From positions 218,811 to 282,810 of the IMG/VR virus record IMGVR_UViG_3300021387_000529: a stretch of DNA of 64,000 bases; one strand, given 5' to 3'. Position numbers and translations under genes: made by a program. A model generated the notes under the pieces. It searched no databases. It was not told the DNA's origin and worked only from the letters and a program-made list of their open reading frames with translations. This DNA is from a virus (Duplodnaviria; Heunggongvirae; Uroviricota; Caudoviricetes). Positions 7,245 through 51,845 of the stretch are shown here, one piece after another (position 1 is the stretch's first letter; every line of letters starts with the position of its first letter).

Positions 7245-7285
7245 ATAAAAGCCACTTTTTCACAAGTGGCTTTATTTATTTTTGA
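7245..7285 (+). terminator. rho-independent terminator
   Basis: aaaagccactt-tttcac-aagtggctttt hairpin followed by a T-run. Confidence 0.6.
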
Positions 7286-7322
7286 ACTTTTATAAAATTT
7301 TTCATATATTATTAATGTAATG
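7277..7322 (+). promoter_or_regulatory. early-class promoter copy (TTGAAC 7282-7287, 17 bp spacer, TATATT 7305-7310)
   Basis: tttttgaacttttataaaatttttcatatattattaatgtaa matches the consensus. Confidence 0.6.
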
Positions 7323-13494: not shown

Positions 13495-16400
13495 ATGACT
13501 GACAATAAAGATCCTTACATTTATAATGTTGATAAAAACTCAGATTTTGAACAATTCGCATGGGCTCTTGAAAATTTTGATGTAAAAGCAGCATTCAAAG
13601 ATTTTCTAAATATTGAAAATAACATACAAAAAAGTGATAAAGAAAATAACACAAAAATTTATGATAGTCTCTATAAACAGTTTCTTGATACAAAGTCTTC
13701 AGATCATCTTTCACAATTACAGCTTGATGTTTTAAATTATATTCTTAAATATGAGAACGGAACATATAAAGTTAATGATAAAATCGTAGACATCGAAACT
13801 AACAAGGGTGAAAAGACTTTTACGCTCTATGAGCCAGGATTTTATAAGGTTGAGATTAAAGGACCATCAGGACTTCAATTAAAAAACTCAACAAATCAAT
13901 TTTTATCATCTGGAAAAAATTATGTAGTTTATGAGTCTAAAGATAAAACAACATTTTTTATCATCAATACTAAGTTTGAATACATTTTCCAATATGCTGT
14001 ATCTTCAAATATAAATATTTCATGTGGTGTAGCTGAAGTAAATGACACAAATGTTTTTCTTTTTGAGCAATTTCATGATTATGATCGACCGGTACATAAT
14101 TTTCAGCAATTAATTGAGGTTGATAATTATTTTAATAAATGTGACGTTTATAATGTTAATAAGTCTACTGTATTTGAGTATTTTTCTTTCATAGATGATG
14201 CGTTTGATAAAAACTTTTATTGTCTTAAGACTAATATTGTTTCACAAAGTACAATTTTATCACATGCAGATATAACATACAATCCAACCACATATGTATG
14301 TGGTTTACCAGAAAATGAACGAAGTGAATATCTATCTGGAATTCAAAACGGTTATTATTCTAAAAAAATTTCTGAAAATATGAATATTAACTCTTTGAAA
14401 GAGCTTACTTTCTCTTCATTTTTGAAGTCTGGTGCTGTTTACAATTATAATTATTTGCATGGTGGTGATGGTGGCTCGGTTGTCGCAATTATTAAGCTCG
14501 ATAAAGAAACAACTTTCCAATACAATATTGGAAAGTCTGATGAAGGAAGTTCTACATTTTTAAAGTCATCTAATTATAGTTTCTATGCAGAATGTGGTCT
14601 TAATGCGAATGAAAAAAGTTTTTTAAAGACATCTGACCATATATCAAATGATAGCCTATGCAATTTAAGACTCATCACAGACCATAATTTTAGAGATGAC
14701 GCATCAAAATCTACAACAGACAAAGTAAACTTCCATATTGGAGAAAACTTAGACTATAGCACATATGAAGCCGGTTGCGGAAGAGGCTTTGTTATTATAA
14801 ACAATAATTGTGTTTTTGAGTCTTATGGCGCAGGAGAATATGGCTCAGGCTATAGACTGAATGAATTTAAAAATGCAGTTTATCAACCTCCAAAAAATGG
14901 TTCTATTAAAATAGAATTTCTTGGCTCAAGATATGTTCTTCATAAAAAAGTAAATTTTAGCTCAGACAACAATATTAGAAATAATTTGTATATATGTGAT
15001 GAAGGTCTTCCAATTGGCTGTAAATTTAATTTCCAATCAATGATTACGAATTCTATGTATGGTTGTTTCAAAAATACATATAGCTTCTTGTCTGAAAATG
15101 GAAGACATTTTAACTACATTGGAATTTCTGTTGATACAAAGGAAATTGAAGATAATGTTGTATTAAACTTTGATAACAACTTGAAATATATAAATATCGA
15201 TAAAGAAAATAAAACAATTTTTACACTTCAAAATGACAAAAATCTTTTTGGAACCCTTACTGGATCTGATGGTGAAAGTCTTATGTTAGACACTATTATG
15301 AATGGGTCTTTCAGTTTTTATAATGACCTTTTGTATAATTATAATAAATTTTGTTCAAATGGTCTTTCAGTAAGTATTTCATCATTCTCATCAGAAAGCT
15401 TTGACCTAAAAACATTATTTAAAAACTTTAATAATTTAAATATATTTAATAATGTTGAGTCAATTACACAAGTTGAGTTTTCTTTTGAAAACTCTTTATC
15501 ATTTTCAAAATACACTGACATCTATGGACAAGTCGTATTGCCAGACGTTGATGAGGCTAAGATAGTAAAACTTGAGTACTCTCTTTATAATCATGAAAGT
15601 CCTGTTCCATATGAAAAAGGCCAAAAAATAATTATTCCTTCAAATACTAAAATGTTTTTGAAATTTACATTTAACACTTCAAGGGTAAGACTTGATGAAA
15701 ATCTTACATCATTTCAAGGCTATAAATATTTTTATAGAAAAAATGTAGATTTTGATAATAACTACATAAAAGATGAATATTTTAAAACTAATGGAATAAA
15801 CTTTCAATGTGTTGAATTTATTCCTCAAACATCACAATATTGCAGCGTTTTTATTCAAAAAAATACATATAATTTCTCAATTAGTCCAGACCTTTTTAAT
15901 GAGCTCGACTTAAAAAATTTCTATAATAGAAGTGAGTTTGAAGTTGGAGAAGCTGTTCTTTTACAATTGAACATTAAAAACTATGTTAGAGTTTCAAATT
16001 TAAAAAATTATTATTATAAACAACAGTCAAAAACGATACTTGGTACGCCATTCCCAGCCCCAGATAAAACTTGCCCTTGCTATACATATTTTGATACAAA
16101 TAATATTTTTGAGTCTTTTATTAGATTTGGAAACCTTGAAGACGATAAAAATTTTTGTGACTCTTCAGTTGTAGACCTTTTATCAAGAAAAGGTTTCAAC
16201 AATGTGGCGATTGAAAGCGGCAAAGAAAAAAATTATAATGGCATTGATGTTCTATGCTCAAGAGAAGTTGAAGAAAAAGACTATGAAGGTGATATTACAA
16301 ATAACCCAACTTTAAAAATCACATGTACTGCGTCTGCTTCAAAAGATGAATCTGTCTTTATCTATATCTACATGAAAGAATGCGATATTAAATTAAGACT

Positions 16401-18018
16401 TTCAGCAAATTATAATCCAGGACAAACTATTGCTTGTGTTGAGAACTTGAACTCTGCTTATGTAAGTATATTCAAGAATTACTGCTTTACTATCTTCGGA
16501 GTTGGTGGACCAACTGGAAATGGTGAAAATGGTGGTTTCGGCGAAATGGACGGAACAACTGAGAGTATGCCTGGGTCATTTGGTGGAGATGGCTATAATA
16601 GTGGAAGTGGTGGATGTGGTGGTTCTACTAAAAACATACGGCCTTGGACACATTATTGGGGTGGTTTCGTTCCTACGAATGTCGACCTCCAAGTAGCTGC
16701 TGCAGGTTTTGGAGGATTTCCTGGAAGAGCATTTTTCTCACCTGGGTCTAAAGGTTCTGATGGCCGTTGTTTACTTGGAAATAAGTATCAGTATATCTTT
16801 AAACTTAGAGCGAAAACTTCAGAAAGAGGTGGTCAAAAATTTATAGAAATTTGGAACCCTGGAGAGAAAAAAGTTCCATATTATACAGGAATTCCAATTG
16901 TTGTTTTTACAGAAATTATCAAACATAAAGAAAACTTTATAAAGCCAGTAATTTATATTAAATCTGGAATAAAAGGACTAAGTCATCTAACAGCTGAATA
17001 CCAATTAGATGGCTTAGGTGGTGGTCCTGGACTTCCATCATTTTTAAAAATTATTCATAATAATGATGTTCCTTATGGTAGTAATAACACAGAATTAAAA
17101 TTAATTTCTAAAAAGACAGCTTATGGTGAAATATATTCATATTTTTATGATAATGGTAATTTGTCTATTAGTAATGAAGATGAAAATACTGCTGGAATGT
17201 CTTCTGGAAAGTTAGACTATAAAGATAAAGTTAATGTAGACTCAATGATTTTTGAAGGTGGAATTGCTGGTCAGTGTCACACTAGACAACCAAAAAGAAT
17301 TTCTACTTACCTCACAGTTTGGGGTTGGCCTTCTAATAATAGTAGCGATGATGAAGACAGATTTTCTGACTATTCTCCATTTACATATAATTATTTATCA
17401 GGATATACTGCTTCATATGCTCAAGGAAACAGTCAATTTACTCAAGACTGCAAAGCTAGCCTAAAATTCACATCGTCTGGTTCAGATGATATTAAAGGAT
17501 TTTATACAATAAGTCAAAATTTTACAAGAAATAAACTTACAGATTACCGTCTAAAAGAACTTTTAGGAATTTGCGTTAATGGTAACGATAATGGCACTAG
17601 AACTCGTGGTTCGCTCGTTAAATTTGGATTTAAAGGTTTTGACTCAGAATATTATAGCCTTTTTTGTGATAGTGATACAGGACGTAACTTTGATAATACA
17701 TTTGTATTCACAAATTGTTCGGCTGCATATGGGCTATCTAAAGAGTCAGAAGACGGAGAACAAACAATTGCAGAAAATCTTATGAAATCATTCAACTTTG
17801 TAGGTGAGTCAAATGTTTCAACAGACTCTGGAATCGTAAAAATACAAACATTCAATGATATTAGTGTTGATAAAAACAAAAGTGAAAAAATAAGCTTAGA
17901 GTCATTCTATAAAGGAGAACCAGACAACCATAATAGCCTAATAGATGCTGAAACAAATCCGACATCATTGATCAGTATTAGTACGTCAACCTTTATTCCT
18001 GAACAGCCTTTGGAGTAA
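13495..18018 (+). CDS. large tail protein (fibre or baseplate-associated, putative; 1507 aa)
   Basis: Asn-rich giant ORF with a Gly-rich segment (GGPTGNGENGGFGEMDG...GGDGYNSGSGGCGG). It is divergent from the tape-measure gene and preceded by an AACTAAAT box 7 nt before the ATG, with no Shine-Dalgarno site. Confidence 0.55.
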   Translation: MTDNKDPYIYNVDKNSDFEQFAWALENFDVKAAFKDFLNIENNIQKSDKENNTKIYDSLYKQFLDTKSSDHLSQLQLDVLNYILKYENGTYKVNDKIVDIETNKGEKTFTLYEPGFYKVEIKGPSGLQLKNSTNQFLSSGKNYVVYESKDKTTFFIINTKFEYIFQYAVSSNINISCGVAEVNDTNVFLFEQFHDYDRPVHNFQQLIEVDNYFNKCDVYNVNKSTVFEYFSFIDDAFDKNFYCLKTNIVSQSTILSHADITYNPTTYVCGLPENERSEYLSGIQNGYYSKKISENMNINSLKELTFSSFLKSGAVYNYNYLHGGDGGSVVAIIKLDKETTFQYNIGKSDEGSSTFLKSSNYSFYAECGLNANEKSFLKTSDHISNDSLCNLRLITDHNFRDDASKSTTDKVNFHIGENLDYSTYEAGCGRGFVIINNNCVFESYGAGEYGSGYRLNEFKNAVYQPPKNGSIKIEFLGSRYVLHKKVNFSSDNNIRNNLYICDEGLPIGCKFNFQSMITNSMYGCFKNTYSFLSENGRHFNYIGISVDTKEIEDNVVLNFDNNLKYINIDKENKTIFTLQNDKNLFGTLTGSDGESLMLDTIMNGSFSFYNDLLYNYNKFCSNGLSVSISSFSSESFDLKTLFKNFNNLNIFNNVESITQVEFSFENSLSFSKYTDIYGQVVLPDVDEAKIVKLEYSLYNHESPVPYEKGQKIIIPSNTKMFLKFTFNTSRVRLDENLTSFQGYKYFYRKNVDFDNNYIKDEYFKTNGINFQCVEFIPQTSQYCSVFIQKNTYNFSISPDLFNELDLKNFYNRSEFEVGEAVLLQLNIKNYVRVSNLKNYYYKQQSKTILGTPFPAPDKTCPCYTYFDTNNIFESFIRFGNLEDDKNFCDSSVVDLLSRKGFNNVAIESGKEKNYNGIDVLCSREVEEKDYEGDITNNPTLKITCTASASKDESVFIYIYMKECDIKLRLSANYNPGQTIACVENLNSAYVSIFKNYCFTIFGVGGPTGNGENGGFGEMDGTTESMPGSFGGDGYNSGSGGCGGSTKNIRPWTHYWGGFVPTNVDLQVAAAGFGGFPGRAFFSPGSKGSDGRCLLGNKYQYIFKLRAKTSERGGQKFIEIWNPGEKKVPYYTGIPIVVFTEIIKHKENFIKPVIYIKSGIKGLSHLTAEYQLDGLGGGPGLPSFLKIIHNNDVPYGSNNTELKLISKKTAYGEIYSYFYDNGNLSISNEDENTAGMSSGKLDYKDKVNVDSMIFEGGIAGQCHTRQPKRISTYLTVWGWPSNNSSDDEDRFSDYSPFTYNYLSGYTASYAQGNSQFTQDCKASLKFTSSGSDDIKGFYTISQNFTRNKLTDYRLKELLGICVNGNDNGTRTRGSLVKFGFKGFDSEYYSLFCDSDTGRNFDNTFVFTNCSAAYGLSKESEDGEQTIAENLMKSFNFVGESNVSTDSGIVKIQTFNDISVDKNKSEKISLESFYKGEPDNHNSLIDAETNPTSLISISTSTFIPEQPLE

Positions 18019-18693
18019 GCACTCTTTCAACACTAATGTATTTTGTGTTGTTATGTCATAATAATAAAAAACAGTTAAATTCTCTTTAGTCTTCTCTTCA
18101 AAATAGACTCTATCAAGTTTATTTTTTTCTAAAGAGAATTTCAAAATTTCTCTTCCTTCTTTTAAAATATCTTTTAAAAATTCATGATTACTACTTACAC
18201 CATGCTCATAAAAATAAAGGTCTGTTATTTGGTTTTTTAGATTAAACGAACAATAATTCAAATAAAATATTTTTCCGTTCAAACCAAAGACAAGCTCATT
18301 TTTAATGTTGCTACTTAATATTTCAACCAGTTCTTTTAATGAACTAATGTAAAAATTCTTTATTTTATATATTTGTCTTCTGTTAAAGAAATCTTCACTG
18401 ATAGACGGATTTATGATTTCATAATATTCTTTTAATTTTCCATCTTTTATTTTTTCTGCTCCAAAATAACTGTCACCTCTGTCATAAAAATATGCATATT
18501 CTTTTGCATCTTCAATTGACGGAATTTTACCATTTATGTAGTCCTCATAAGGAACTTTTATCTCAATCTCAGTGATAGTCTTTTTGGTGCATTTAGACTT
18601 CGCATTTTTTAGTCCTAATTTTCTGCGAAGTCTATTTGCTTTTCTATTTGCTCTTTTAATTTCTCGTTTAATTCTTCTTGGTAAAGTTTCCAT
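17986..18693 (-). CDS. hypothetical protein with an Arg/Lys-rich N-terminus (nucleic-acid-binding-like); start uncertain (the track ORF extends to 18747)
   Basis: The internal ATG at 18693 (METLPRRIKREIKRANRK...) overlaps the SbcC stop by 26 nt. No Mre11/SbcD phosphoesterase motifs are present. Confidence 0.45.
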   Translation of the reverse strand: METLPRRIKREIKRANRKANRLRRKLGLKNAKSKCTKKTITEIEIKVPYEDYINGKIPSIEDAKEYAYFYDRGDSYFGAEKIKDGKLKEYYEIINPSISEDFFNRRQIYKIKNFYISSLKELVEILSSNIKNELVFGLNGKIFYLNYCSFNLKNQITDLYFYEHGVSSNHEFLKDILKEGREILKFSLEKNKLDRVYFEEKTKENLTVFYYYDITTQNTLVLKECLLQRLFRNKG

Positions 18694-20719
18694 TTTTTGC
18701 CTCAAAAATATAAATATCGTCATAATTCTCTTCCAAATAACTTCCAAGAGCTTTTTTATGAGATATTAAAAACAGTTGATGGAACTGATGAAGATTTAGT
18801 AAAACTGAAAAAAGTTTAATGGAGTCATTATCGCTTGAGGCTTTATCGATTTCATCTCCAACAAAAAAGTCTATTTTGTAATATTTTGCCAAAATAGTCT
18901 TAAAAGCTGTTGTCAAAACTGCACGTTCAAATCCAGATGACATTCGTGTATCAAGCCATCTATTCTTATTTTCATCAACAACCGTATTGTCTTTTGTATA
19001 CAGCAAATCACAGCCTTTTTTAGAAGTCTTTACAAGGACATCATATTTTGGGAAAATCATATGAACGAAGGCATTTAGATCATTTTTGATTGTATCACAA
19101 AAAACTTTAGTTCGATACTGTGGCAACAACTTATTCAAAACTTCCCAAGCTTCATCATAAACAGATGCCATTATATTCACTTCTGTAAGTTCAGCTTCAT
19201 TCTTTCCCAAAGCTTCATCTATGGCTTTAATTTTATTTCTCTTCTCTTCATTTTGTCTCATGATAAATTGATTTTTATCATTTGCGCGCTCATATTCTTT
19301 TATGTCAGCAAGAATTTTATTATTCTCATTGACTATGCCAGAAACATCAACTTTCTTAATAGAAGAAACTTTATCTTGAAGAGTCTTCTGCTCAACCTCT
19401 AATTTTGAAATTAAGTCTTTCAAGTCTGCAAGTCTTTTTCTGACTAAAGGCTCTTCTGCTAATGAATAACTAATGCCTTTTTTAACTTCCTCAGACTCTA
19501 CAATCATATTCTCATAATTTCTTTTCATATGAGTATATTCTGTGTGAGCTGCTGTCAATTCAGCACTTGTGCTCTGAGCGTTTGTGTTTGCTGTCCTATA
19601 ATAGTCCACCATTTTATCAGCATCTAAACATTTTTCTTTAAGTTCTGAAATCTCTTTCTCAAAATGAGCGACAACATTGTCTGTGCTTTGGCCACAAACT
19701 GGGCACTTTCCATCTCTACATTTTTCTTCTCTCTCTTCAAAAGATTTCAACTCAAATCTGAGGTTGTTTCGTGTGTCAGTCGCTTCGCTTAATTGTTTGT
19801 AAGTCTCTGCAATTGTGTCTTCAATTTTGTTTATGTCTTTGCTTCTTTCAATTGCTTCTGCATCAAGCTCAGCAATTTTTTCCTTAAATTCTTCAATTCG
19901 CTTGTCTTCATCTACAAGTTTATTTTTCAAATTGTCAATGTCACGAAGTTTATTTTCATATGGAGCTACATCGAGTTGGTTTTTATGAAGAGATAATTCG
20001 ACTTCACGGAGCTGAGACATCAATTCATCTTGTTTTTTCTGAGCTTCACTTACTTTAGAAATTTTTTCCAAGTTTTCAGATAGTCTATTATTAAATTTAA
20101 TAATCTGCTCAGCTGTAAAAGGCATTGCAATAGCTTGCTCAAAATGAGACAATTCAGACTTCAAAGCATTTTTAGACGCAGTGTCAATACGCAATTCTTC
20201 GAGCTGTTTTTTTGCCTGTTGCAATTTTTCAGTAATTATCTGCTTTTGTGAGTCATAATTAAAATTAAAAAGATTTTTAATGTATTCAAGACGCGAAGCT
20301 GATGTTTGGTCTACAATATCTTTCGCATTCTGCATTTGGAACATAATTTTTGAATAATATGAAATTCCAAGAGCAGAGAGTTTTTCAGACGCTTTTGTAT
20401 TTTTATATGTTTCGCCTTTGTAGTCTAATTCACATTCATATGGTGTGCCATTCACACGGTTCAATGTTAGGCGTATTTCTGCATCATCCTCATAAATCTT
20501 AAACTTTAAGACAATATTAGCGTTATCACACCCTTGTTTTACATATTCACCATATGTGCCAGAACGTTTTTCATCACTAAAACATATTGATATTGCTTCG
20601 AATACAGCAGATTTTCCAGAAGCTGGTTCTCCATAAAAATAATTTATATTTCCAAAATCAAATGAAGCATTTGTAATGTTCATGAAATTTTTAATTGAAA
20701 GAGACTTTATTCTTAACAT
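18668..20719 (-). CDS. SbcC/Rad50-like SMC-family ATPase (recombination nuclease subunit)
   Basis: N-terminal Walker A (YFYGEPASGKSAV), a long coiled coil with a central CPVCGQ zinc hook, a C-terminal signature (MSSGFERAV), and Walker B plus D-loop (FFVGDEIDKAS). The protein is 683 aa. Confidence 0.85.
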   Translation of the reverse strand: MLRIKSLSIKNFMNITNASFDFGNINYFYGEPASGKSAVFEAISICFSDEKRSGTYGEYVKQGCDNANIVLKFKIYEDDAEIRLTLNRVNGTPYECELDYKGETYKNTKASEKLSALGISYYSKIMFQMQNAKDIVDQTSASRLEYIKNLFNFNYDSQKQIITEKLQQAKKQLEELRIDTASKNALKSELSHFEQAIAMPFTAEQIIKFNNRLSENLEKISKVSEAQKKQDELMSQLREVELSLHKNQLDVAPYENKLRDIDNLKNKLVDEDKRIEEFKEKIAELDAEAIERSKDINKIEDTIAETYKQLSEATDTRNNLRFELKSFEEREEKCRDGKCPVCGQSTDNVVAHFEKEISELKEKCLDADKMVDYYRTANTNAQSTSAELTAAHTEYTHMKRNYENMIVESEEVKKGISYSLAEEPLVRKRLADLKDLISKLEVEQKTLQDKVSSIKKVDVSGIVNENNKILADIKEYERANDKNQFIMRQNEEKRNKIKAIDEALGKNEAELTEVNIMASVYDEAWEVLNKLLPQYRTKVFCDTIKNDLNAFVHMIFPKYDVLVKTSKKGCDLLYTKDNTVVDENKNRWLDTRMSSGFERAVLTTAFKTILAKYYKIDFFVGDEIDKASSDNDSIKLFSVLLNLHQFHQLFLISHKKALGSYLEENYDDIYIFEAKNGNFTKKN

Positions 20720-20767
20720 AGTTTTCTATACCATTTATTATATTAATAATAAGAAATTCAGTATTAA

Positions 20768-20843
20768 CTATATTATAATTTAAAATCTATAGGGAAGCAG
20801 AAAGTGCTTACCCTTTTAAAGATTATTTAAACAGGTAACTAAA
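20768..20843. repeat. conserved intergenic element, copy A (76 nt): ctatattataatttaaaatcTATAGGGAAGCAg-aaag-TGCTTACCCttttaaagattatttaaacaggtaactaaa
   Basis: Identical to copy B (51403..51479) except for the hairpin loop (gaaag versus gggatt). The stem is GGGAAGCA/TGCTTACCC. It lies in the divergent gap between the SbcC start and gene 20892. Confidence 0.8.
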
Positions 20844-20891
20844 CTCACTTTGTAACTATTAATATATTACACATAAATAAGGAAGGATAAA

Positions 20892-21230
20892 ATGAAAGAA
20901 AACACAGCACATGTTGGAATTGATAGCGAAATTGACTACAAGATTGGAGACCATATTTTTACAGCAGACTTTGTAGGTGGCGGTGAAAATGAAAGTAAAT
21001 TCGATGTCAAAGAATATGAAATCAAAGATATGAAAAAAATTCTTGGAAAACCAAATTACTATGAAATTGTTGATATTCGTTTTCCAAAATCAGTTATTAA
21101 GTCCGACTTGCAGACTGGCTTCTTCAAATCAGCAAAAGAAGCTGCAAAGGCATTCTTAGACTCAATTGACTTCATTCATGATGAATGCCATAAAGTTTAC
21201 GAAAAAGAATACGGAAAGGATAATGCTTAA
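20892..21230 (+). CDS. hypothetical protein (112 aa)
   Basis: ORF with Shine-Dalgarno site aaggaaggataaaATG, directly downstream of conserved element A. Confidence 0.55.
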   Translation: MKENTAHVGIDSEIDYKIGDHIFTADFVGGGENESKFDVKEYEIKDMKKILGKPNYYEIVDIRFPKSVIKSDLQTGFFKSAKEAAKAFLDSIDFIHDECHKVYEKEYGKDNA

Positions 21231-22263
21231 ATATAATGTAGATGAGTTTTACAGCTTAGCACAAAAATCTACTAAAACTGTAAAGTCTATTGACCCTCAT
21301 AAAAGACTTGTCTATTTGAATGGCCTGATTGATATGAAATTGGGCCGTGCTTTGCAAGTTTTGGAAAATGCAAAATTCATTAAAAAGTGCTCAATTGCAT
21401 TTATTGGCACAACGCATGCTGATGGAACACGAGACTTAAATCAACATTATGGACATATCTGCATTGATGATGAGAAATACTATCGTGTGTCAACATGTCT
21501 CGATAAGCAGCATATGACTATTCAAATTCCGTCATATGAGTCACAATATTGGGATGAAAATACATATTTGTGCTTTACGACTGGTGACTTATTTCTTACA
21601 GTGAAAGCTTTGGATTTGAATGGCTGTTTGCATACTAAGACTGATATTGGAAATGATGAGTTTTATATTCTCGAGCTTTTACAGAAAAAAGTTGTGCGTC
21701 ATTTTGGTATTATTGATGATGTCAATCTCATGGAGTCTACAGTTTCTGATTGTGACTTGAAAAAAGTTAATTTATTAGATGGCTTTAATGACTTTAAGAT
21801 TAAAGGCTGTCTTTCATCACAGCATCCAAAATATGCATTAAAATACGCGCATTCAAATGATGTTGAGTATTTTGCTTCATTAGAAGGTATTCGTAAAGTC
21901 TATCCTTCTTTACGTTATTCTCGGCAGTATTTGAGCAGTATCTCGAAGAAAAATATTTCTGAAAAATTTAATGAGCCAAAAGAAATTACAATTGACGGAA
22001 TTGACTATATTTTGTACAATATTAAAGGCATCACAATTGATGACTTCATAAAAATGTTGCCTACAGAATATAAGGATGAGTCAGTTCTTTATGATGATAG
22101 CATTGAACTAACTATAAAAGAAGCTGAAGACTTTATTAAGTCTATTTCTTCAATTACAGTAAGTGAGTTTGATATTACAAATATCAAAAATCTTTTCGGA
22201 AAAGTGACGAAAGCGACGTGTAATGAAGCAGTTGAATTAGGACAAATTAGGTGTTATGGTTAA
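21223..22263 (+). CDS. hypothetical protein (346 aa; the track ORF starts at 21166)
   Basis: The in-frame ATG at 21223 has Shine-Dalgarno site gaaaggataATG. The gene is translationally coupled to the helicase gene, overlapping 22256-22263. Confidence 0.5.
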   Translation: MLKYNVDEFYSLAQKSTKTVKSIDPHKRLVYLNGLIDMKLGRALQVLENAKFIKKCSIAFIGTTHADGTRDLNQHYGHICIDDEKYYRVSTCLDKQHMTIQIPSYESQYWDENTYLCFTTGDLFLTVKALDLNGCLHTKTDIGNDEFYILELLQKKVVRHFGIIDDVNLMESTVSDCDLKKVNLLDGFNDFKIKGCLSSQHPKYALKYAHSNDVEYFASLEGIRKVYPSLRYSRQYLSSISKKNISEKFNEPKEITIDGIDYILYNIKGITIDDFIKMLPTEYKDESVLYDDSIELTIKEAEDFIKSISSITVSEFDITNIKNLFGKVTKATCNEAVELGQIRCYG

Positions 22264-24187
22264 AGTTGAGTTTGAAGATGGATTGTTATATGTGACTTGT
22301 GGCGGTGCTCGTTTTTCAGAGCAGCTTGAAACTTGCCGTGATATGAAAATGATTTATTCGCCTTCTAAAAAGGCATGGACAATATCACCAGGAAAATACG
22401 AAGAAGTCTTAGCAGAATTTCACCAGTTTGGAGTTCAGCTTTCAGAATATGACAAACTTCAAATCAACCAGTACATCGATAATATCTCAGACTTTCATAA
22501 AATTATGAAACGTTCTGAGCGTCGTCATTATGATGATGATGTTCTCAATTCCCCACCAAAATATGACTTTCAAAGAGTAGATGTAAACAGAGCAATTAAC
22601 CAAACTTCAATGCTTTTCAAATGGGACACAGGAACTGGAAAGTCATGGGCTCTTGCAGCGACATTAGAAGAATTACGTAAAATTGGAGAAGTTCACAAAG
22701 CAATTATCCTAACTTCATCAATTGGTATTATGAACTTGAATGGTGAGCTTAAGAAGTTCATTAAAAATTATGACGAGTCACGAACATTAGTCGTTGCATC
22801 TGTAACAGACTTGAAAAAAGACAGAGCAATTTTCAGCAATGATGACTATGACATTATTATTATGGGTTATGACTCATTCCGTTCGATAAATGATTATTAT
22901 GACAAAATTGTAAATAAACGTGAAAAGAAAGTTGTAACCGATGAAAATGGAAAAAAGCATACTAAAAAAGTTCGCTATAGAAAGTCTTCATTACCACTGA
23001 AAGAATGGTACGGTGATAAAGAAGGAATAGTCTTTTTAGATGAATGCCATCTTTCTGGAAAGCATGGTTCACAGCGTGGTGATGCTCTTATAATGAATTT
23101 GAAGTTTTGGAAATATCGTTATCTATTTTCAGCAACTCCAAATGATGTAGAAGAAAACTTTTATCCAACATTACGTATTCTTGATAATGCTCTTGTAAAA
23201 GGCCTTTCATACCAAGATTGGTTGCAATTATATTGTGAGCTTGGAACTCGATTTTCAAGATATGCTCCAAATAAGTCTACTTGGAACTGGGGAAAATGGG
23301 CAGCATTACAGCATGCATTAGGCGAAACATATGTTTCAACTCGTGAGAAAAGCTTATTAGGACTTCCACCTGCAATTGATATGGACCTCATAATGGTTGA
23401 AATGTCACCACAGCAAAGAAGAATTTATGAGATTTTCTCAAATATTACGCTTGAAATTATTAAGAAAAGAAACCAAGAGAAAAACACTGGCGTTGTAAAT
23501 GAACTTTTAAATACATTCCAAGTTTTACAAATGGCAGTCGATAATCCAGAGTCTATTATTGGCTCAAAAGTTATGGACACAATCTCTGCTTTGAATATTG
23601 ACACAAAGATGAAAATAGACTTTGTAAATGCATTAAATGATTTTGATTATTTGAAGCACTTTAATAAAATCAAAGCATTGGAAAATATTCTCGAATATGA
23701 ATGTGAAGAAATGGGCAATAAAGTTATAGTTTTCTATTATCACCCATTGACAATGGAAAAACTTAAAAAAATTTACCCAAATGCATTCATCCTGTCTTCT
23801 GATATTGAAGAGTCTGAGCGCTTTAAGATTGTTGAAGACTTCAAAAAGTCTAGTGAGAAAGTTTTAATTGCGTCTATTATGATCGCAAATACTTCATTCA
23901 CATTGACTGAATGTAAAGCAGCAATTTTTTATGAGCGTTATTGGTCTGGAATTATATATGAACAAGCTCGTGGACGTATTCATAGAATTGGACAAACAGA
24001 AGAAACACGTTACTATAATATGTGCTATGAAAACTGTATAGATAATTTGCAGCTTGAAGCATTGAAAACGAAAGGCCAATGTATTCAGAATATCGGTAAA
24101 ATGTCAACACTTACAAAAGATGAATGGCGCTTAATTTTTGGTGGAACAGCTGAAGAATTGAATGGATTCTTAAAAAAGATTGCATAA
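22256..24187 (+). CDS. SNF2-family DNA-dependent ATPase/helicase
   Basis: Motif I KWDTGTGKSW, motif II FLDECH, and motif VI QARGRIHRIGQ (a canonical SNF2 signature). The protein is 643 aa. Confidence 0.8.
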   Translation: MVKVEFEDGLLYVTCGGARFSEQLETCRDMKMIYSPSKKAWTISPGKYEEVLAEFHQFGVQLSEYDKLQINQYIDNISDFHKIMKRSERRHYDDDVLNSPPKYDFQRVDVNRAINQTSMLFKWDTGTGKSWALAATLEELRKIGEVHKAIILTSSIGIMNLNGELKKFIKNYDESRTLVVASVTDLKKDRAIFSNDDYDIIIMGYDSFRSINDYYDKIVNKREKKVVTDENGKKHTKKVRYRKSSLPLKEWYGDKEGIVFLDECHLSGKHGSQRGDALIMNLKFWKYRYLFSATPNDVEENFYPTLRILDNALVKGLSYQDWLQLYCELGTRFSRYAPNKSTWNWGKWAALQHALGETYVSTREKSLLGLPPAIDMDLIMVEMSPQQRRIYEIFSNITLEIIKKRNQEKNTGVVNELLNTFQVLQMAVDNPESIIGSKVMDTISALNIDTKMKIDFVNALNDFDYLKHFNKIKALENILEYECEEMGNKVIVFYYHPLTMEKLKKIYPNAFILSSDIEESERFKIVEDFKKSSEKVLIASIMIANTSFTLTECKAAIFYERYWSGIIYEQARGRIHRIGQTEETRYYNMCYENCIDNLQLEALKTKGQCIQNIGKMSTLTKDEWRLIFGGTAEELNGFLKKIA

Positions 24188-26373: not shown

Positions 26374-27138
26374 TTAGTTGGATGCACGTTTAAGTCTATC
26401 CAAAAGCTCAAGTTCGATGAGATTAACCATATCAATTTCTTTTTTATTAGAGCAACACATTTTAATAAATTGACTTTTGATGTGTCTGTTCTTTGGCTTT
26501 TTGAAAATCAAATTGATGTAAAAGCGACACTTCATTTTGATAATGTCACCACCACAAACTTGTTCAAGTTCTTCATCCAATTCATGCAAAACTTCTTCAA
26601 CAATGTCTTCAAATGTGTTTTTGAACATATCTTCAAAATGGTCATAGTCTTGCGAAAGAATAGGCTTAATGTCTGCTTTGTCAGCAATGCTCAATAAGTC
26701 CAATTCAGATGAGTCTGTATCAAGAATTAAAGAAAGAGTTTTGTCTTCTTCTTTTTCACCATAAACAGCTTCAAGAACTTTGTAGTTAATCATTTTACCG
26801 AATGACGTTCCACATTTAAAATTACGACGATACAAATATTGTGACATAAAACGAAGTGATGAGTCACTTGTGTAGTCATCAATAATGTCTGGAGACAAAA
26901 ACTTTTTATGCTTCAATTTCTGCAAAACCATTGAACGAGCATATGTCTGAACAAAACCATACATCTTTGTCCAAATGTTTATTTTCTGTTTATCGTCTTT
27001 TTCTTTGTACCATGCTTCTTGAAGTTTGTAAAGTGTCTGTTCAATTTCAGGTTTATCTTCTAATGAGCCTTCCCACTCGACTTCAGTTGCGTCATCAACT
27101 TCAGGGCGGTCGTCTTCTTCGTAATCAATCAAATCCAT
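26374..27138 (-). CDS. hypothetical protein with an acidic N-terminus (254 aa)
   Basis: ORF. A weak resemblance to a transcription-factor or sigma-like helix-turn-helix at the C-terminus is not supportable from sequence alone. Confidence 0.5.
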   Translation of the reverse strand: MDLIDYEEDDRPEVDDATEVEWEGSLEDKPEIEQTLYKLQEAWYKEKDDKQKINIWTKMYGFVQTYARSMVLQKLKHKKFLSPDIIDDYTSDSSLRFMSQYLYRRNFKCGTSFGKMINYKVLEAVYGEKEEDKTLSLILDTDSSELDLLSIADKADIKPILSQDYDHFEDMFKNTFEDIVEEVLHELDEELEQVCGGDIIKMKCRFYINLIFKKPKNRHIKSQFIKMCCSNKKEIDMVNLIELELLDRLKRASN

Positions 27139-27157
27139 ATATAATATATTAATATAA

Positions 27158-27200
27158 ATTTTTTGAATTTAATTAATCTTTTTCATATATTATATTTGTA
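27158..27200 (+). promoter_or_regulatory. early-class promoter copy (TTGAAT 27163-27168, 17 bp spacer, TATATT 27186-27191)
   Basis: ttttgaatttaattaatctttttcatatattatatttgtaa. The leader is only about 12 nt before ATG 27214. Confidence 0.6.
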
Positions 27201-27213
27201 AGAGGAGACCACA

Positions 27214-27814: not shown

Positions 27815-28160
27815 AGAGCACGGTTACTCTTTCCCACTTCATGATTTCGTGAAGATGATTAACATTGCAATTTTTGGTGACAAAATTGCAACTAAAATTC
27901 ATCGTAAGTTCTCAAGTCATCATGCTCATATGAGACACATTAGAGTTTATTATGATGATGGAATGCATAAATGGTCTAAGGTTCAGCCTGCTGGAAGATT
28001 TATCAAAAATCAGGTAGAAGCAGCGGTTGACTGGGAAAGCGCCCGCTTCACTAAACCTGAAAAACCTTTGAATGCTTACCAAACTTGGAAGAAATATTAC
28101 TCAGACATAGACATGGAAGAAACCTTGAAGAAGTTGGGTTTTTGGGAAGAAAATTTTTGA
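27750..28160 (+). CDS. hypothetical protein (136 aa, GTG start)
   Basis: GTG preceded by the Shine-Dalgarno site aaaagaggaaca. Confidence 0.5.
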   Translation: MNRIDEIKKTIKHRAVVQKIAKEHGYSFPLHDFVKMINIAIFGDKIATKIHRKFSSHHAHMRHIRVYYDDGMHKWSKVQPAGRFIKNQVEAAVDWESARFTKPEKPLNAYQTWKKYYSDIDMEETLKKLGFWEENF

Positions 28161-28196
28161 ACAAAGACTAAACTTTTCATATATTATATCCGTAAA
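28152..28196 (+). promoter_or_regulatory. early-class promoter copy (TTGAAC 28157-28162, 17 bp spacer, TATATT 28180-28185)
   Basis: aaatttttgaacaaagactaaacttttcatatattatatccgtaa. Confidence 0.6.
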
Positions 28197-31181: not shown

Positions 31182-32825
31182 GTGTTAATTTTGTCAGCAA
31201 TTATTGGTGGAGGAATTCTCGCAATCCTCATTCTTATCATGTTTTTTGTTGGATATTTCAAAGCTCCAACAAATAAATGTTTTGTTATTTCGGGTTTGCG
31301 CAAGAATGCACGAAAAGTTATTGGAAAGTCTGGCTTCAGGATTCCGTTCCTCGAGCGTAAGGATGAGCTTACTCTTGAGTTGATTTCAGTTGATGTAAAG
31401 ACACAGGAAGCTGTTCCAACTGCAGAATGTATCAATATCTCAGTTGATGCTGTAGCGAACATCAAGATTGGTACTTCTGATGAAATGTTGCAGAAAGCAT
31501 CACAGAACTTCTTAAACCAGGATGTACGATATATCAACAGCGTTGCTCGCGAAGTTCTTGAAGGTAACTTGCGTGAAATTGTTGGTACCATGACTTTGAA
31601 AGCCATGATGAATGACCGCAAAACTTTTGCTGAGAAGGTTCAGGAAAATGCAGTTCCAGACCTTAACAAAATGGGTCTTGAGATTGTATCATTCAATGTA
31701 CAGAACTTCAGCGATGAGCAGGGTGTAATCAACAACCTTGGTATCGATAACATCGCAACTATTCAGAAGAACGCATCAATTGCAAAAGCAAATGCTAACA
31801 AAGAAGTTGCTGTTGCAGAAGCAAAAGCTCGTGAAGAGTCAAATGACGCAAAGGTTGCTGCTGATACTGCAATTGCTGAAAAGAACAATGCTCTTGAAGT
31901 TCGTAAAGCCGAACTTGAAGCTGAACGTTTGAAGCAGATTGCAAAAGCTGAAGCTGCAGGTGCAATTGAGAAAGAAACACAGCGTAAGACTGTTGAGGTT
32001 ACAAAACAGGAAGCTGAGATTGCCCGCTTGCAGAAAGAGAATGACTTGAAAGAGCAGGAAATCTCAATCAAGGAAAAAGCACTTGATGCTGAAATCAAGA
32101 AACAGGCCGATGCTGAAAAGTATGCTGCTCAGACTCGTGCTGATGCTGAACTTTATGAACGTACAAAAGCCGCTGAAGCTGAAAAGATTGAGAAAGAGCG
32201 CAATGCTGAAGCAAACCTCATTGCTCTCCAGAAGAAAGCTGAAGCTGATAAATACGAGCAGGAAAAAGCCGCTGAAGCTTTGGTTGCAAGGTCTGAAGCT
32301 GAAAAACAGCAGAAGTTGAATGAAGCTGAAGGTCAGAAAGCTCTTGCTGAAGCTATCCAGGCCAAGGGTGAAGCTGAAGCTGCTGCTGTAAAAGCTAAAC
32401 TCGAAGCTGAAGCTGAAGGTCTTCGTAAGAAAGCACTTGCTGAAGCTGAAGGTTTGAAACAGAAAGGTTTGGCTGAGGCTGAAGCAATCAACAAGAAAGC
32501 TGAAGCTCTCGCAAAGATGAATGAAACTGGTAAAATGGACATGCAGTTGGAAGCACTGAAAGCGCTCTTCAGCCAGTTGCCAGCAATGTATGAAGCAGCT
32601 GCCAAACCTTGGGAGAAAGTTGGAAACATCACAATGTACAGTGGTGGAAAAGATGGTGGTGACAACCTTCTTACAGGCAACATCACTAAGACAATCACTC
32701 AGGTTGGTGCAGGTCTTAAAGACTCGCTTGGTATCGACCTTGGAGACGTTGTTAAGGGCCTTGTTGGTGGAAAGCTTGTTGGTTCAGAAGTTGCGAAAGC
32801 ACTTTCAACAAAAGACAAAGCATAA
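31182..32825 (+). CDS. flotillin-like SPFH/band-7 membrane scaffold protein (FloT/YuaG-type)
   Basis: GTG start after the Shine-Dalgarno site AAGGAGG. The protein has an N-terminal transmembrane helix, an SPFH domain (FVISGLRKNARKVIGKSGF...LEIVSFNVQNF), a ~250-aa Ala/Glu/Lys-rich coiled coil (EA repeats), and a Gly-rich C-terminus. Its architecture and 547-aa length match bacterial flotillin. Confidence 0.8.
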   Translation: MLILSAIIGGGILAILILIMFFVGYFKAPTNKCFVISGLRKNARKVIGKSGFRIPFLERKDELTLELISVDVKTQEAVPTAECINISVDAVANIKIGTSDEMLQKASQNFLNQDVRYINSVAREVLEGNLREIVGTMTLKAMMNDRKTFAEKVQENAVPDLNKMGLEIVSFNVQNFSDEQGVINNLGIDNIATIQKNASIAKANANKEVAVAEAKAREESNDAKVAADTAIAEKNNALEVRKAELEAERLKQIAKAEAAGAIEKETQRKTVEVTKQEAEIARLQKENDLKEQEISIKEKALDAEIKKQADAEKYAAQTRADAELYERTKAAEAEKIEKERNAEANLIALQKKAEADKYEQEKAAEALVARSEAEKQQKLNEAEGQKALAEAIQAKGEAEAAAVKAKLEAEAEGLRKKALAEAEGLKQKGLAEAEAINKKAEALAKMNETGKMDMQLEALKALFSQLPAMYEAAAKPWEKVGNITMYSGGKDGGDNLLTGNITKTITQVGAGLKDSLGIDLGDVVKGLVGGKLVGSEVAKALSTKDKA

Positions 32826-33902: not shown

Positions 33903-34344
33903 AATAAAAGGTGATATTTTCAGCCAGATTGGATATTCAATTGCTTTTGCAGTTGATGCAACTTACAGATGTGATGTCGGTATCTGTAAGCAACTCGATG
34001 ATAAGTTTCGTGTTGAAGCTCTTTTGAAGTCATTGCCTGAAGAGGCAACAAAATGGAAAGGAAAAGGTTACTGTATTGCATTTACTTCAGGAACTCAAGA
34101 CTTATATGCTCTTGTCGTTAAGTCACTTCCACAGAAATATCCAGACTATTCAAACATCAAAGAAGCTCTTATGAGTTTGGCAGCAGATGTTGCACGAAAA
34201 AGCAGCATTCTTACGCCTAAAATTGCTATGCCTAAGATTTGCTGCGGAATTTATGACAGACGAGATTGGGATAAAATTGAAAGTCTTATCATTGATGTTT
34301 TCAAAGGCATTGATTGTGAAATTTTAATTGTTGAAAAAGACTAA
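33889..34344 (+). CDS. hypothetical protein (151 aa); weak macro-domain-like N-terminus, not confirmed
   Basis: ATG at 33889 with Shine-Dalgarno site GGAAGGAGG (the track uses TTG 33868). Confidence 0.5.
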   Translation: MTLNKIKGDIFSQIGYSIAFAVDATYRCDVGICKQLDDKFRVEALLKSLPEEATKWKGKGYCIAFTSGTQDLYALVVKSLPQKYPDYSNIKEALMSLAADVARKSSILTPKIAMPKICCGIYDRRDWDKIESLIIDVFKGIDCEILIVEKD

Positions 34345-34345
34345 A

Positions 34346-34392
34346 ATTTTTTGAACTAGTCACATAATTTTCATATATTATATCCGTAACAA
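34346..34392 (+). promoter_or_regulatory. early-class promoter copy (TTGAAC 34351-34356, 17 bp spacer, TATATT 34374-34379)
   Basis: tttttgaactagtcacataattttcatatattatatccgtaa. Confidence 0.6.
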
Positions 34393-41918: not shown

Positions 41919-42245
41919 TTAAATAAACTTATCTAATATTACAAAGTCTTTTTTCTCAAAAAAATTTTTAAGAGGAACAAACTTTTTAATTTTAGATTTT
42001 TGAAATACCATAAAAATTGCAATCAGCTTTTGTTGTGTATTTATAGATAAATTTTTTAATAAAGTATAGTTATAAAATTTATTTTTTTCTAAAACACTAC
42101 ACAAGTATAAGAAAACTTTCTCTAATAGCTCATCATAATACCCATGAAAAGCATTACATTTAATGATATTTTGCAGAGCTAAATTTATATAATTTAACTC
42201 TGCATTGTCAGACTCTAACTCAAAATTAGTTTCCAGTTCCGTCAT
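41919..42245 (-). CDS. doubtful ORF in a very AT-rich gap (108 aa from the ATG at 42245)
   Basis: Open frame overlapping the giant gene stop by 20 nt with no Shine-Dalgarno site. The region has roughly 20% G+C and may be non-coding or regulatory. Confidence 0.25.
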   Translation of the reverse strand: MTELETNFELESDNAELNYINLALQNIIKCNAFHGYYDELLEKVFLYLCSVLEKNKFYNYTLLKNLSINTQQKLIAIFMVFQKSKIKKFVPLKNFFEKKDFVILDKFI

Positions 42246-45200
42246 CTGGTGGTGCGGCTTCTTCTGAGCGTTCTCCAATTGTGGCATCAATCTCTCCTTT
42301 TCTATATGCTTCTCCTAAAGAAGCAAGGCTAGTTTTAATTATTGGTTCAGCTAAACCTACTTCTGGGACCCAGTTACCATTAGGCAGATTTGCATATAAC
42401 GTTTCATCAATAAAATATTGAAGACTCATATTTTCAAGTAAGAATTCTTTCCATGCTGCAAAGTCTAATACTTTTTCAGTTATTGATGAACTTAGCTCAA
42501 CATTCATGTCTTCTCGTCCTTCTGTAGTAATAGTAAAATAGCCTGGAGCAGCAATTTCTTCACTTAAATACGGTTTAAATATTCTTGGCTTTTCAGGCCA
42601 GACTCTAATATTTGGAATAACAAAATAGTTTCTCTTGTATTCATTCAATTTATATTTGTGCGTTCCATTATCCTCATCAAGAACCATACCATATAATTCA
42701 AGATTATATCTTACTGGGTCATTATTTGTTTTTTCTACATCAACAACAATTACAGTGAAAGATGTTATCTCATATTCTTGTCCTTTAAATTTAAGCTTAA
42801 TCGCTCTTGAAGATGTGTCAACAATATTATAACGTGTAAATGATTTTAGCTCGATATTATTTGGAGACTTTGCAACATCAAGTTTAAGTGCTGATGGAGT
42901 AAGCGTATGCTGTAATTCTATGAGCTGTCTAATATTTTCAGAAGAAATCTCGATTTTTGAGTCAGGAATTGGCAATATCTGACCATTTATATATGAGTTA
43001 TCTCTGAACTTAAACTCATTAACAAATGTCGTTTCTTTGAAAATTTGTGGTCTAACATTTTGTGTATTGAACAAATATTCATTAAATTCAGTTTCAAATC
43101 TATCCGCTGCGCATCTTGTAGACTTTTTCAAAATAGGTGAACGAACAAATGCGTCTTTAACTGAGACCAAATTTCTTCTTAAAGGCTTAATATAATACTC
43201 TTTATAAGTATGGTTAAAATCACCTTCTGAATGAACAACAGACTTTTCTGAAGTAATATTATGGTCATGTGTAAAAGGCGTAAACTCTGCTGTTGCAGTG
43301 TTATCCGCATGTGTTTCTTTCCAATTTTCAAAACCAGAATTACCAATGCTTACAGTATGGTTAAATGTTGTCGGTGTAGTTGTAATATTTGATGTGCCTA
43401 AAAGAACATTTGCTGTTGTAGTTTTAAGCTCAATTTTTTGTTTGCTTAGTGTAACTACTGGTTTTGCAGACTCATTATTAGTTAAAGAAGGAGCAGATTT
43501 TGTGCCTTCAGATACTAAGTCGCTTCCTTTTACAGTTATTTTAACAGTCTTATTATTTGCTGTTGGTGAGAATGTCGCTGATATTGTTGGGGCGCTACCA
43601 GCAAGCTTAGCAGCAGTCCAAAGTTTGTTAATTGCGTCTTGAAGATTATTAAGTGTAATTGTTCCTCCAGAAGATACATCAACAGTTGTTGAATACTCTT
43701 TATCAGAAGTGCTAATTCCTTCAAGGAAATTATTAGAATTAAGTCCTAAACCGCTTTTGATGAATTTCTGTTCGCCAACTGTAATACCTGTAACGTATTC
43801 TGCTTTATCACCTTCCAATTTAACAGTCTTAATTACGTCTTCTTTATTTTGAGTAAATCCATACTGGTTTATTGTATGCGCAGACACATTTACAGTTAAA
43901 GACTTTTTATCATCTTTATTGTTATTATTTTCAGTCTTGTCTTCTATATAATGAACATACTGCTTACTTGATTTATCTTCATTGCAACTATCTACGGTAA
44001 CGTGCAATTGTTCTGTCTCACGAGTAGACATTAAAATAGAGTCTTTACTAATTGACGTTTCAACCTCTTGACTTGTATCTCCACCTTGTGAATTTACATC
44101 TTCTGGAATATTATCAGAAATTAAAACGTCATGTTTATATGAAGCAGCTGTAGAGTCGATGTCTTCTGTTAAGTTGCCATCTGTACCGTCACTAAAGAAT
44201 TCTTTTTCAAAGAAATAACCTTCAGTAAAACCACCTTTAGTTGGGTCTAACCAATCAATATCATTATTAAGATATTGGCTTACATATGAGAACTCATCGC
44301 TGAATTCAAATCCTGAAAGAGGCTTTCCAACGTTTTCTGGTTCAAGAACTTCACCAATCTGTGTCACATCTTTGAGTACAGTAGCTATATCTGCATATTT
44401 ATTAATTCTTTCAAAGAGTGTTTTATCAGGTATATGTGAGTCTCTTATATTTTTACTAAATACATTTTTTTCAATAAATGCTCGAACGTCCAAAGACTCT
44501 ATCTTTGCATCATCACCAAAAATAGACATATCATAGTCTTCATGGTCTGAACAAGAAATTATGTCATAATTCCAGCCTCTTTCGAGTGTATCGTCATCTA
44601 CAATTTCAATATGAGTTGTGTCTGTATCAAGCAAATTATATTTTTCAGATGAACTATAAACTTTTTTATCAATATAATCATTGAAATCACAACTATGTTC
44701 TTTTCCATTTCTGTCTACCCAAACAAGGTCATTATTCGCAATAGGTCTTTGCAAATATGGGAATGCTTGTTCATATTCAGATGAAAGTCCTGTAATTCCA
44801 TTTAAGAAACCAAAGAAAAATTTTCTTTTTTCTAAGTCTTTGCCACATGATGCATTGATCTTATTTAAGAAAAGGTTTACACTTGTATGATAAACTGGTC
44901 TTGCTAAACGATATGACAAACTTGACTCATATACACCATCAGCTTTTGCTTCTACTGTATAATGTTTTTTATCATGATAATCTGACCATGATGGGAAAAA
45001 GTTTTTAATGAATTGCTCATTAATTTTATCAGGATGACCAATAAGCTCAATAATTTTTCTAAATTCACTCGAGACATTTGTTACTTCTTCATATCCTTCA
45101 AAAAGAGAATCTACCCATTCTGCATCAATATCAGCTGAGTCAAAGTCACGCTCACGTGTAAGTTTTATTGAAGGGATTAAGTCTATTGAGTCTTTTTCAG

Positions 45201-51350: not shown

Positions 51351-51402
51351 ATCTTATAATATTAATAGTGCAATGATGAAATTTCTAGAAATTCCCCTAT
51401 TA

Positions 51403-51479
51403 CTATATTATAATTTAAAATCTATAGGGAAGCAGGGATTTGCTTACCCTTTTAAAGATTATTTAAACAGGTAACTAAA
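51403..51479. repeat. conserved intergenic element, copy B (77 nt)
   Basis: Same sequence as copy A apart from the hairpin loop. It lies in the divergent gap between the GroEL start and gene 51505. Confidence 0.8.
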
Positions 51480-51504
51480 AATTCTCATTGTTAATATATT
51501 ATAC

Positions 51505-51813: not shown

Positions 51814-51845
51814 TTATGCACTCTTCATATATTATATACGTAACG
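51800..51845 (+). promoter_or_regulatory. early-class promoter copy (TTGAAT 51805-51810, 17 bp spacer, TATATT 51828-51833), overlapping the 3' end of gene 51505..51813
   Basis: ttttttgaattagttatgcactcttcatatattatatacgtaa. Confidence 0.6.

Follow-up and report, generated by a model that had tools for sequence, protein, structure and literature searches.

The two near-identical intergenic repeats predicted in this phage DNA belong to a real, strongly constrained, clade-specific family of cis elements. Each member spans approximately 95 bases and combines a box resembling a promoter with a variable hairpin and an AT-rich palindrome that is invariant. From the sequence, we tentatively favor a regulated rightward promoter cassette, in which a sigma-A-type −10 element would precede a bistable leader or operator recognized by a phage factor, a reading to which we give somewhat less than an even chance. 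The original prediction, made on a 64,000-nt stretch of the genome (hereafter, the window), was correct in its observation and understated the extent of the family.

Proteins identical to those of the window are encoded on two sheep-rumen metagenome contigs of 300,791 and 301,258 bp, which places the window within a jumbo phage of approximately 300 kb. The GC content is ~34%, and Shine-Dalgarno sequences are in use. A megablast search of GenBank phages with positions 18000–24000, the SbcC–helicase region that holds copy 1, returned no match. The replication and recombination genes are T4-like and include an SbcC-like ATPase, which we take to be a homologue of T4 gp46, together with a Metallophos nuclease, RecA, Thy1, TK, dCMP deaminase, and NrdD. 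The phage also carries unusual cargo (ribosomal protein S21, GroEL, a beta-CASP/RMMBL RNase, a GGDEF protein, and a eukaryotic-type topoisomerase IB), located at 54207–54500 (−), 49704–51350 (−), and 62895–63977 (−) of the window and at 16977–17996 and from 20167 onward of L042; related contigs further encode flagellin-like, PARG, NAD synthase, and NAPRTase proteins. A 547-aa ORF (31182–32825) contains Ala/Glu-rich coiled-coil repeats at 31860–32510 with GCTGAAGCT periodicity. Among three giant ORFs, the divergent 1177/1507-aa pair is 34–42% identical in the relative L019 despite flanks that are ~97% identical, and may represent a hypervariable host-range module.

Three parts recur in every copy of the element: a left block (TATAATTTAAAATCTATAGGG), a hairpin that differs from copy to copy (H1), and an invariant palindrome of 13-5-13 layout (H2; TTACCCTTTTAAA-GATTA-TTTAAAcaGGTAA), the last of which had been overlooked by the original prediction (Table 1). 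Alignment of the variants defines the invariant right block as (T)TACCCTTTTAAAGATTATTTAAACAGGTAA. The variable segment of 10–16 nt corresponds to the 5′ arm and loop of H1, and the remaining arm of H1, NNTTACCC, is part of the right block. This 3′ arm is also used by H2 as its 5′ arm, which sets H1 in competition with the H2 outer stem. The left block is invariant in 18 of 20 variants, with both variants from context D reading TCATTAGGG instead, and its TCTATAGG box is conserved across three clades. Upstream, the GAAATTC box and its preceding bases form a weak −35-like hexamer, (A/T)AGAAA, situated 16 nt from TATAAT in copy 1 and 17 nt in copy 2; the box could alternatively be part of a leftward promoter. 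The 102-aa ORF that follows copy 2 lacks a Shine-Dalgarno sequence, and its mRNA may be leaderless. Several element-flanking genes (the GroEL start at 51350, the ORF at 51505, and L042 12478) display a −10-like box 3–8 nt before the ATG without a Shine-Dalgarno sequence, which suggests leaderless mRNAs.

Table 1. Coordinates of the element parts and of related features; positions refer to the window unless another contig is named.
Feature	Position	Strand	Remarks
GAAATTC box, copy 1	20753–20759	+	semi-conserved; 12–18 nt (usually 14) 5′ of TATAAT
Left block TATAATTTAAAATCTATAGGG, copy 1	20774–20794	+	consensus −10 hexamer (20774–20779) and TCTATAGG box
Hairpin H1, copy 1	20792–20813	+	GGGAAGCA / loop GAAAG / TGCTTACCC; upper stem and loop copy-specific
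Palindrome H2, copy 1	20808–20838	+	TTACC-CT-TTTAAA-GATTA-TTTAAA-CA-GGTAA; invariant
−10-like box TTAATATATTA, separate from element	20859–20869	+	ahead of 112-aa gene, ATG 20892
−10-like box TTAATATAATA of divergent SbcC-like gene	20747–20757	−	start codon 20719
GAAATTC box, copy 2	51388–51394	+	TAGAAA-17-TATAAT scores 10/12 as sigma-70-type promoter
Left block, copy 2	51409–51429	+	
Hairpin H1, copy 2	51427–51449	+	loop GGGATT
Palindrome H2, copy 2	51444–51474	+	
−10-like box TTAATATATTA, copy 2	51491–51501	+	3 nt ahead of 102-aa ORF ATG (51505)
TTAATCTAWA motif	32873, 37314 (+); 54516 (−)	+ and −	16–32 nt 5′ of Thy1 operon, RecA, 117-aa gene
Family of long, conserved sigma-70-like early promoters TTTTTTGAAC-N17-CATATATTATATYCGTAA	405–463, 7263–7321, 27144–27202, 28138–28196, 34332–34390, 51786–51844, 61980–62038	+	
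Back-to-back partners of early promoters	near 382–419, 27124–27177, 28147–28186	−	several bidirectional pairs
ACTAATTTTTTA(T)TA box	38535, 59864 (+); 41915, 41823, 39821, 114 (−)	+ and −	13–30 nt before start codons
Giant ORFs of 1177, 1507, and 2356 aa	9931–13464 (−), 13495–18018 (+), 42226–49296 (−)		
Tandem element duplication	L183 9756–9942		each copy after CATGGCCATG-type palindromes and CCATGTTGTCA

Both predicted copies, at 20768–20843 and 51403–51479 on the plus strand, were recovered as described, differing solely in the H1 loop. Their similarity reaches further upstream at 88%, to 20752 and 51387, up to a AGAAATTC motif (families D8 and D10). The window holds no additional members, as the 17-mer core occurs twice even when three mismatches are permitted, and a covariance model run with filters off yielded the same two copies and no others. 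Scanning for further copies, as had been proposed, expanded the family considerably. Pattern scans of IMG/VR and JGI metagenomes gave 20 distinct variants in 10 genomic contexts (A–J), with three copies on a single 97-kb contig, and at least 10 contexts were found in close relatives in addition to orthologous copies in two sister clades. A third copy in the genome of the window lies ~0.5 kb beyond the window end, ahead of an 86-aa ORF and the beta-CASP RNase. Copy density is approximately one per 25–30 kb, and context D is missing from the genome of the window, so the presence of the cassette differs among close relatives. Copy number and orthology together rule out a simple recent duplication of a spacer. 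Scanning the genome contigs with the left block returned 120 matches, all attributable to chance and none accompanied by a right block, and a clade-general pattern matched IMG/VR by chance in coding DNA only; the early-promoter pattern matched five IMG/VR loci.

The junctions at which the element resides are highly biased. Divergent junctions account for 9 of 12 contexts, compared with 13% of all window junctions (P = 1.7e-6), in agreement with the preference originally proposed. The upstream neighbor is divergent in all 12 contexts and co-directional in none, and three contexts (E, I, and L189) have no same-strand gene downstream, with the element facing the 3′ end of a convergent gene. The plus-strand early promoters lie between co-directional genes in four of seven cases, a position in which the element is never found. 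Within the window, the minus-strand neighbors are, as first described, an SMC/SbcC-like ATPase for copy 1 and a Cpn60 chaperonin for copy 2, while the rightward operons encode a ResIII/Helicase_C helicase and an NAD-dependent ligase, respectively. The distance to the plus-strand gene, originally given as 30–50 nt, holds for copy 1 (48 nt, to 20892) but not for copy 2 (25 nt, to 51505). The accompanying statement that the neighbors lack the early promoter also requires correction, as the ligase gene immediately 3′ of the 102-aa ORF has its own early promoter (51786–51844).

Across contexts, the genes downstream of the element encode a UvsW-like helicase, the 102-aa ORFan followed by NAD ligase and dCMP deaminase, NrdD, dUTPase with PolA, and a beta-CASP RNase, which fits the suggestion, made at the outset, of a middle-class promoter or regulator site. 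Upstream genes encode SbcC, GroEL, an AAA+ protein, an AAA ATPase, TopIB, and ClpP; on the strength of a Walker motif and an unassigned DNA_pol3_delta2 match, we take the AAA+ protein for a clamp loader. Unrelated small ORFans come after most copies, and no paralogy was found among the proteins that neighbor the copies. Leftward promoters are of the early type in contexts D, F, and H, resemble the late box in E, and consist of a plain −10 box in A, B, C, I, and J, a mixture indicating that the element is not a class marker for the leftward genes. The late box named by the original prediction is probably the ACTAATTTTTTA(T)TA box, two of whose six occurrences (38535 and 39821) directly follow GC-rich GAAA-tetraloop terminators. 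Nearer the ATG, most rightward genes possess a −10-like box of their own, 17–36 nt from the element; this variable spacing led us to reject the idea that the right block acts on the downstream box as a fixed −35 or an activator site. In context I (L012 11112–11564, L035, and L029), a 150-aa P-loop kinase-like ORF that we judge to be real ends inside the right block, and its terminal ...YLFK* is the reverse complement of GGTAAG..TTTAAA.

The proposal that the stem is kept and the loop varies holds, and true covariation was observed in H1, where compensatory changes produce AAGC/GCTT, AAC/GTT, and AAGT/ACTT pairings. In the three-clade alignment, four H1 pairs have changed on both sides, and none of 500 shuffles reached the observed score. 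Covariation in H2 is modest, with one pair (columns 41–68) switched from A-U to U-A in the L183 clade. Within the clade of the window, H2 is invariant save for a CA-to-AG change in two independent contexts (L036 and L039), which closes the internal loop to give a perfect 13-bp stem. Predicted folding energies indicate that H2 is always available (−6.6 to −18 kcal/mol), whereas H1 ranges from −2.5 to −11 kcal/mol; the energies are close and trade off between copies, a strong H1 tending to accompany a weak H2. Both strands fold with the same stability, without the G-U asymmetry that would assign a strand, and so RNA and DNA (cruciform or operator) readings are inseparable by sequence. H1 is followed directly by TTTTAAAG, with only four T residues, and an intrinsic terminator scan (GC-rich hairpin plus at least five T in 8 nt) was negative at both copies. 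At the gathering threshold, the window matched no Rfam family, a permissive search around copy 1 gave only chance-level matches (E above 5), and a tRNA/tmRNA scan of the window found none.

A search with the SbcC-like protein identified homologues at 52, 50, 41, and 34% identity, which allowed the element to be followed over a greater evolutionary distance. Two sister clades, at 50–70% protein identity, retain it at the SbcC and GroEL junctions. In the 50% relative (L183), SbcC faces a 114-aa ORF, a 346-aa ORF, and the helicase in the same synteny as the window, and the SbcC gap contains two diverged tandem copies. The 52% relative (L189) has lost the helicase operon, and one copy still lies beside SbcC. 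Where the 102-aa ORFan is 70% identical, the copy at the GroEL junction is retained. No element was found in the 41% and 34% relatives. IS200/IS605-type TnpA and/or TnpB genes occur in L187 (17390–19388; the 41% relative) and L189 (8072–9364), where they adjoin the rearranged SbcC region and are not next to elements.

Persistence across clades is limited to TCTATAGG, CCCTTTTAAAGA, both TTTAAA motifs, and AGG(T/A)AA. The box common to the three segments reads GGGAAG/CTTACC/GGTAA(G/C) in the clade of the window, GGAAAG/CTTTCC/GGAAAG in all three L183-type copies (two loci), and GGTAAC/GTTACC/GGTAAC in L189. The boxes thus change in concert within a clade (TTACC/GGTAA versus TTTCC/GGAAA), while the upper stem of H1 remains copy-specific. 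This combination argues for a co-evolving trans factor rather than base pairing alone or gene conversion, and points to boxes that would be read by a clade-specific protein or other factor acting in trans. TATAAT is also replaced in the sister clades, by TGT-CACAAT, TGT-CATATT (twice), and TGT-TATTTA.

Several additional candidates were set aside. TATTAC flanks many copies in the clade of the window and is absent from sister-clade copies; an HUH-type nick site was rejected on this basis, as was the CATGGCCATG palindrome near −30 as a part of the element, which is likewise not conserved across clades. The right block contains CCCTT, which we take to be a poxvirus TopIB site; its avoidance elsewhere in the window was not supported, with 25 occurrences observed against 29 expected and hence no depletion. 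Contigs that begin inside the element were discarded as evidence for a start site, given that their ends fit a repeat break at k=31 and that they include metagenome assemblies.

In the promoter cassette that we favor, the left block would be read rightward by a host sigma-A-type RNA polymerase using a perfect TATAAT and, in several copies, a weak −35-like TAGAAA at 17 bp, with transcription predicted to start within or just 5′ of TCTATAGG. The first ~60 nt of the transcript, or the same stretch of DNA, would fold as either H1 or H2 through their common arm, with a balance particular to each copy. A clade-specific phage factor would recognize the TTACC/GGTAA boxes and TTTAAA-N5-TTTAAA, in DNA as an operator at about +25 to +55 or in RNA as a hairpin, and would thereby time transcription into the downstream DNA-metabolism operon as a middle-class switch. 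Direct observation covers how the element is built, its copy family, its bias in junctions, the covariation, the concerted change of boxes across each clade, and what the neighboring genes encode. TATAAT is present in all 20 variants of the clade, including the A at position 2 and T at position 6 that characterize a −10 element. Among the sister hexamers, CACAAT and CATATT keep both bases, TATTTA (L189) has A at position 6, and TGT lies upstream of each. A perfect hexamer, or a weaker hexamer with TGn, is the pattern expected of a sigma-70/sigma-A −10 rather than of a T7-type specificity region. At a spacing of 16–18 bp, TAGAAA-17-TATAAT is present in copy 2 and some other contexts, and copy 1 falls under the scan threshold. 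The AATCTAWA sequence is common to the left block and the motifs upstream of RecA and Thy1 and, as a lead only, may represent the core of a middle promoter class.

Several known systems offer partial parallels to this cassette. T4 middle promoters pair a MotA box at −30 with a sigma-70 −10. The element is similar in that its −10 lacks a proper −35, a semi-conserved box (GAAATTC here) lies around −30, and DNA-metabolism genes follow, and the gene set at the element is T4-like (gp46-like SbcC, UvsW-like helicase, RecA/UvsX-like, NrdD, and Thy1). It differs in its long invariant region 3′ of the −10 and its varying box spacing, and no MotA/AsiA homologue was identified. The nut sites of phage lambda and put sites of HK022 are hairpin-based leader elements near divergent promoters that act on the elongating polymerase. 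Like them, the element is a hairpin-built cis element just 3′ of divergent promoters; however, the loops and bulges of nut and put are conserved and recognized and occur in two copies, whereas the loops of the element vary, its stems and flanks are invariant, and its copies number approximately ten. Among described systems, the PeSL/PmSL cassettes of T4-like phages come closest; in these, a sigma-70-like or middle-mode promoter and a stem-loop recur in multiple copies (PMC2839356, PMC4122927). Both are short conserved intergenic composites of variable presence, with a G3-loop-C3T3-4 type stem-loop and ORFans often following them, and a promoter with an adjacent stem-loop in many copies is found in each. 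PeSLs are mostly found immediately behind a stop codon in gaps between co-directional genes, and their stem-loop has been shown in tests to act as a terminator (PMC2839356, PMC4122927). The element, in contrast, sits at divergent junctions (0 of 12 contexts have the co-directional upstream position), has a weak or absent −35, and possesses a second invariant palindrome of 31 nt that has an arm in common with the first hairpin.

Certain observations count against the promoter cassette. The −35 is weak and its spacing variable, three contexts have no same-strand gene downstream, most downstream genes have −10-like boxes of their own, and the element avoids the co-directional junctions used by the ordinary early promoters of this phage. 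Strand-equal hairpin stability also fits a DNA palindrome as well as it does an RNA leader. A unit that is not primarily a promoter we consider possible though doubtful: a bistable three-box DNA or RNA device (seg1, seg2, AT-rich spacer, and seg3) in which formation of one hairpin precludes the other. At divergent junctions, it would be read by a clade-specific phage protein. Its role would be to initiate replication or sense supercoiling at multiple copies, or to act as a new kind of leader switch timing DNA-metabolism operons, with individual copies tuned by H1 strength.

A DNA structural element, either origin-like or a cruciform three-box site (box-hairpin-box, AT-rich spacer, and box), strikes us as rather unlikely. 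Such a site would bind a clade-specific initiator or architectural protein where divergent transcription builds negative supercoiling, and any promoter activity might serve priming. The preference for divergent junctions flanked by replication genes is consistent with this, as are the joint change of seg1 (forward), seg2 (reverse), and seg3 (forward) within a clade, the lack of strand asymmetry in hairpin stability, the AT-rich TTTAAA-N5-TTTAAA center, and the persistence of the L189 element beside SbcC after loss of the helicase operon. Both window copies also coincide with local minima of the cumulative GC skew, a signal confounded with gene orientation. The herpes simplex origins oriS and oriL are likewise built of three boxes. 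They resemble the element in having an AT-rich spacer between inverted boxes, a third box that can pair with the middle box into a hairpin, and a location between divergent genes that include replication genes. This is an analogy only, as the virus type differs, the element has many more copies, and no origin-binding protein was identified. Likewise, no initiator protein was identified, and the variation in box spacing (20 to 22 bp) and in the gap between left and right blocks (10–16 bp) would be awkward for a protein that binds duplex DNA rigidly. We know of no phage with approximately ten origins per genome that each carry a 76-nt conserved sequence, which also weighs against an origin.

The three contexts without a downstream gene and the tandem pair in L183 could instead reflect a family of stand-alone small RNA genes of ~40–70 nt, comprising the promoter, H1, and H2, that act in trans and for which the downstream genes are incidental. 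The conservation exceeds what a leader would need, in keeping with this proposal. Nonetheless, we find it improbable, given the lack of a canonical terminator, of an Rfam match, and of a G-U strand bias.

We assign a similarly low probability to a recombination or mobility cassette, either a PeSL-like patch of homology that shuffles ORFan modules or a miniature hairpin element of the IS200/IS605 type. The variable presence of context D, the L183 duplication, the small ORFans after most copies, and the TnpA/TnpB genes in relatives would fit, and PeSLs provide a precedent (PMC2839356, PMC4122927). Contexts A and B, however, are orthologous across clades, orientation and junction type are strongly constrained, and neither target-site duplications nor an association with a transposase was seen. 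A cassette of this kind would also be compatible with a regulatory role.

The original prediction likened the core to a promoter for a T7-like single-subunit RNA polymerase, starting at GGG straight into the hairpin, an explanation that we rate as highly doubtful. The element contains CTATAGGGA, which matches the T7 consensus promoter from −5 to +4, and the T7 record displays CTATAGG at phi1.1B and CTATAG at phi1.1A. The 21-nt left block is about the size of a T7-type promoter, a conserved duplex of ~23 bp running from −17 to +6 with a (C)TATAGG(G) start region, and a hairpin at the proposed +1 presumably resembles the leader of T7 phi10. That class III promoter has a CTATAGG core followed by a 5′ GGG...CCC hairpin and an AU-rich leader, all three of which have counterparts in the element. 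A phmmer search with T7 RNA polymerase nevertheless gave no match among all ORFs of at least 100 aa in 648 kb (302 kb non-redundant, ~215 kb of it from this clade, so that about two-thirds of the genome was covered), Pfam and PHROG scans revealed no RNA polymerase, and a motif scan of the same DNA for the polymerase metal site (DxDGD-type) found none. The 1507- and 2356-aa giant ORFs gave no significant match to Pfam, PHROG, or PDB sequences and no RNA polymerase, and the 1177-aa ORF gave only weak tape-measure matches in a PHROG search. Positions −17 to −7, the specificity region of such a promoter, are invariant within the clade and replaced in the sister clades by TGn plus sigma-type hexamers. 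Copies are also few, with other genes using the early family, the ACTAATTTTTTA box, or TTAATCTAWA, and the palindromic nature of CTATAG makes the match less informative than it appears.

Finally, a bidirectional terminator or insulator, with a hairpin between an A-tract and a T-tract, is very unlikely indeed, for despite the pseudo-dyad symmetry (TTTAAAATCTATA-GGG...CCC-TTTTAAAGAT) and the position of the E, I, and L189 copies directly after an opposite-strand stop codon, 9 of 12 copies lie where no transcript needs ending, the terminator scan was negative, the real terminators of this phage are GC-rich GNRA hairpins of unrelated sequence, and terminators do not require 50 invariant bases.

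The transcription programs of uncultured jumbo phages are almost unknown. In this context, the element serves as a searchable, sequence-defined marker for a class of replication and nucleotide-metabolism genes in a lineage of ~300-kb rumen phages. It also predicts a co-evolving trans-acting factor and supplies exact coordinates for 5′-end mapping and binding assays. Should the element prove to be merely a promoter with a leader, it would still be a clean addition to the few characterized phage promoter cassettes. If the favored reading is true, the shared-arm, two-hairpin design with its copy-specific balance would represent an unusual regulatory device.
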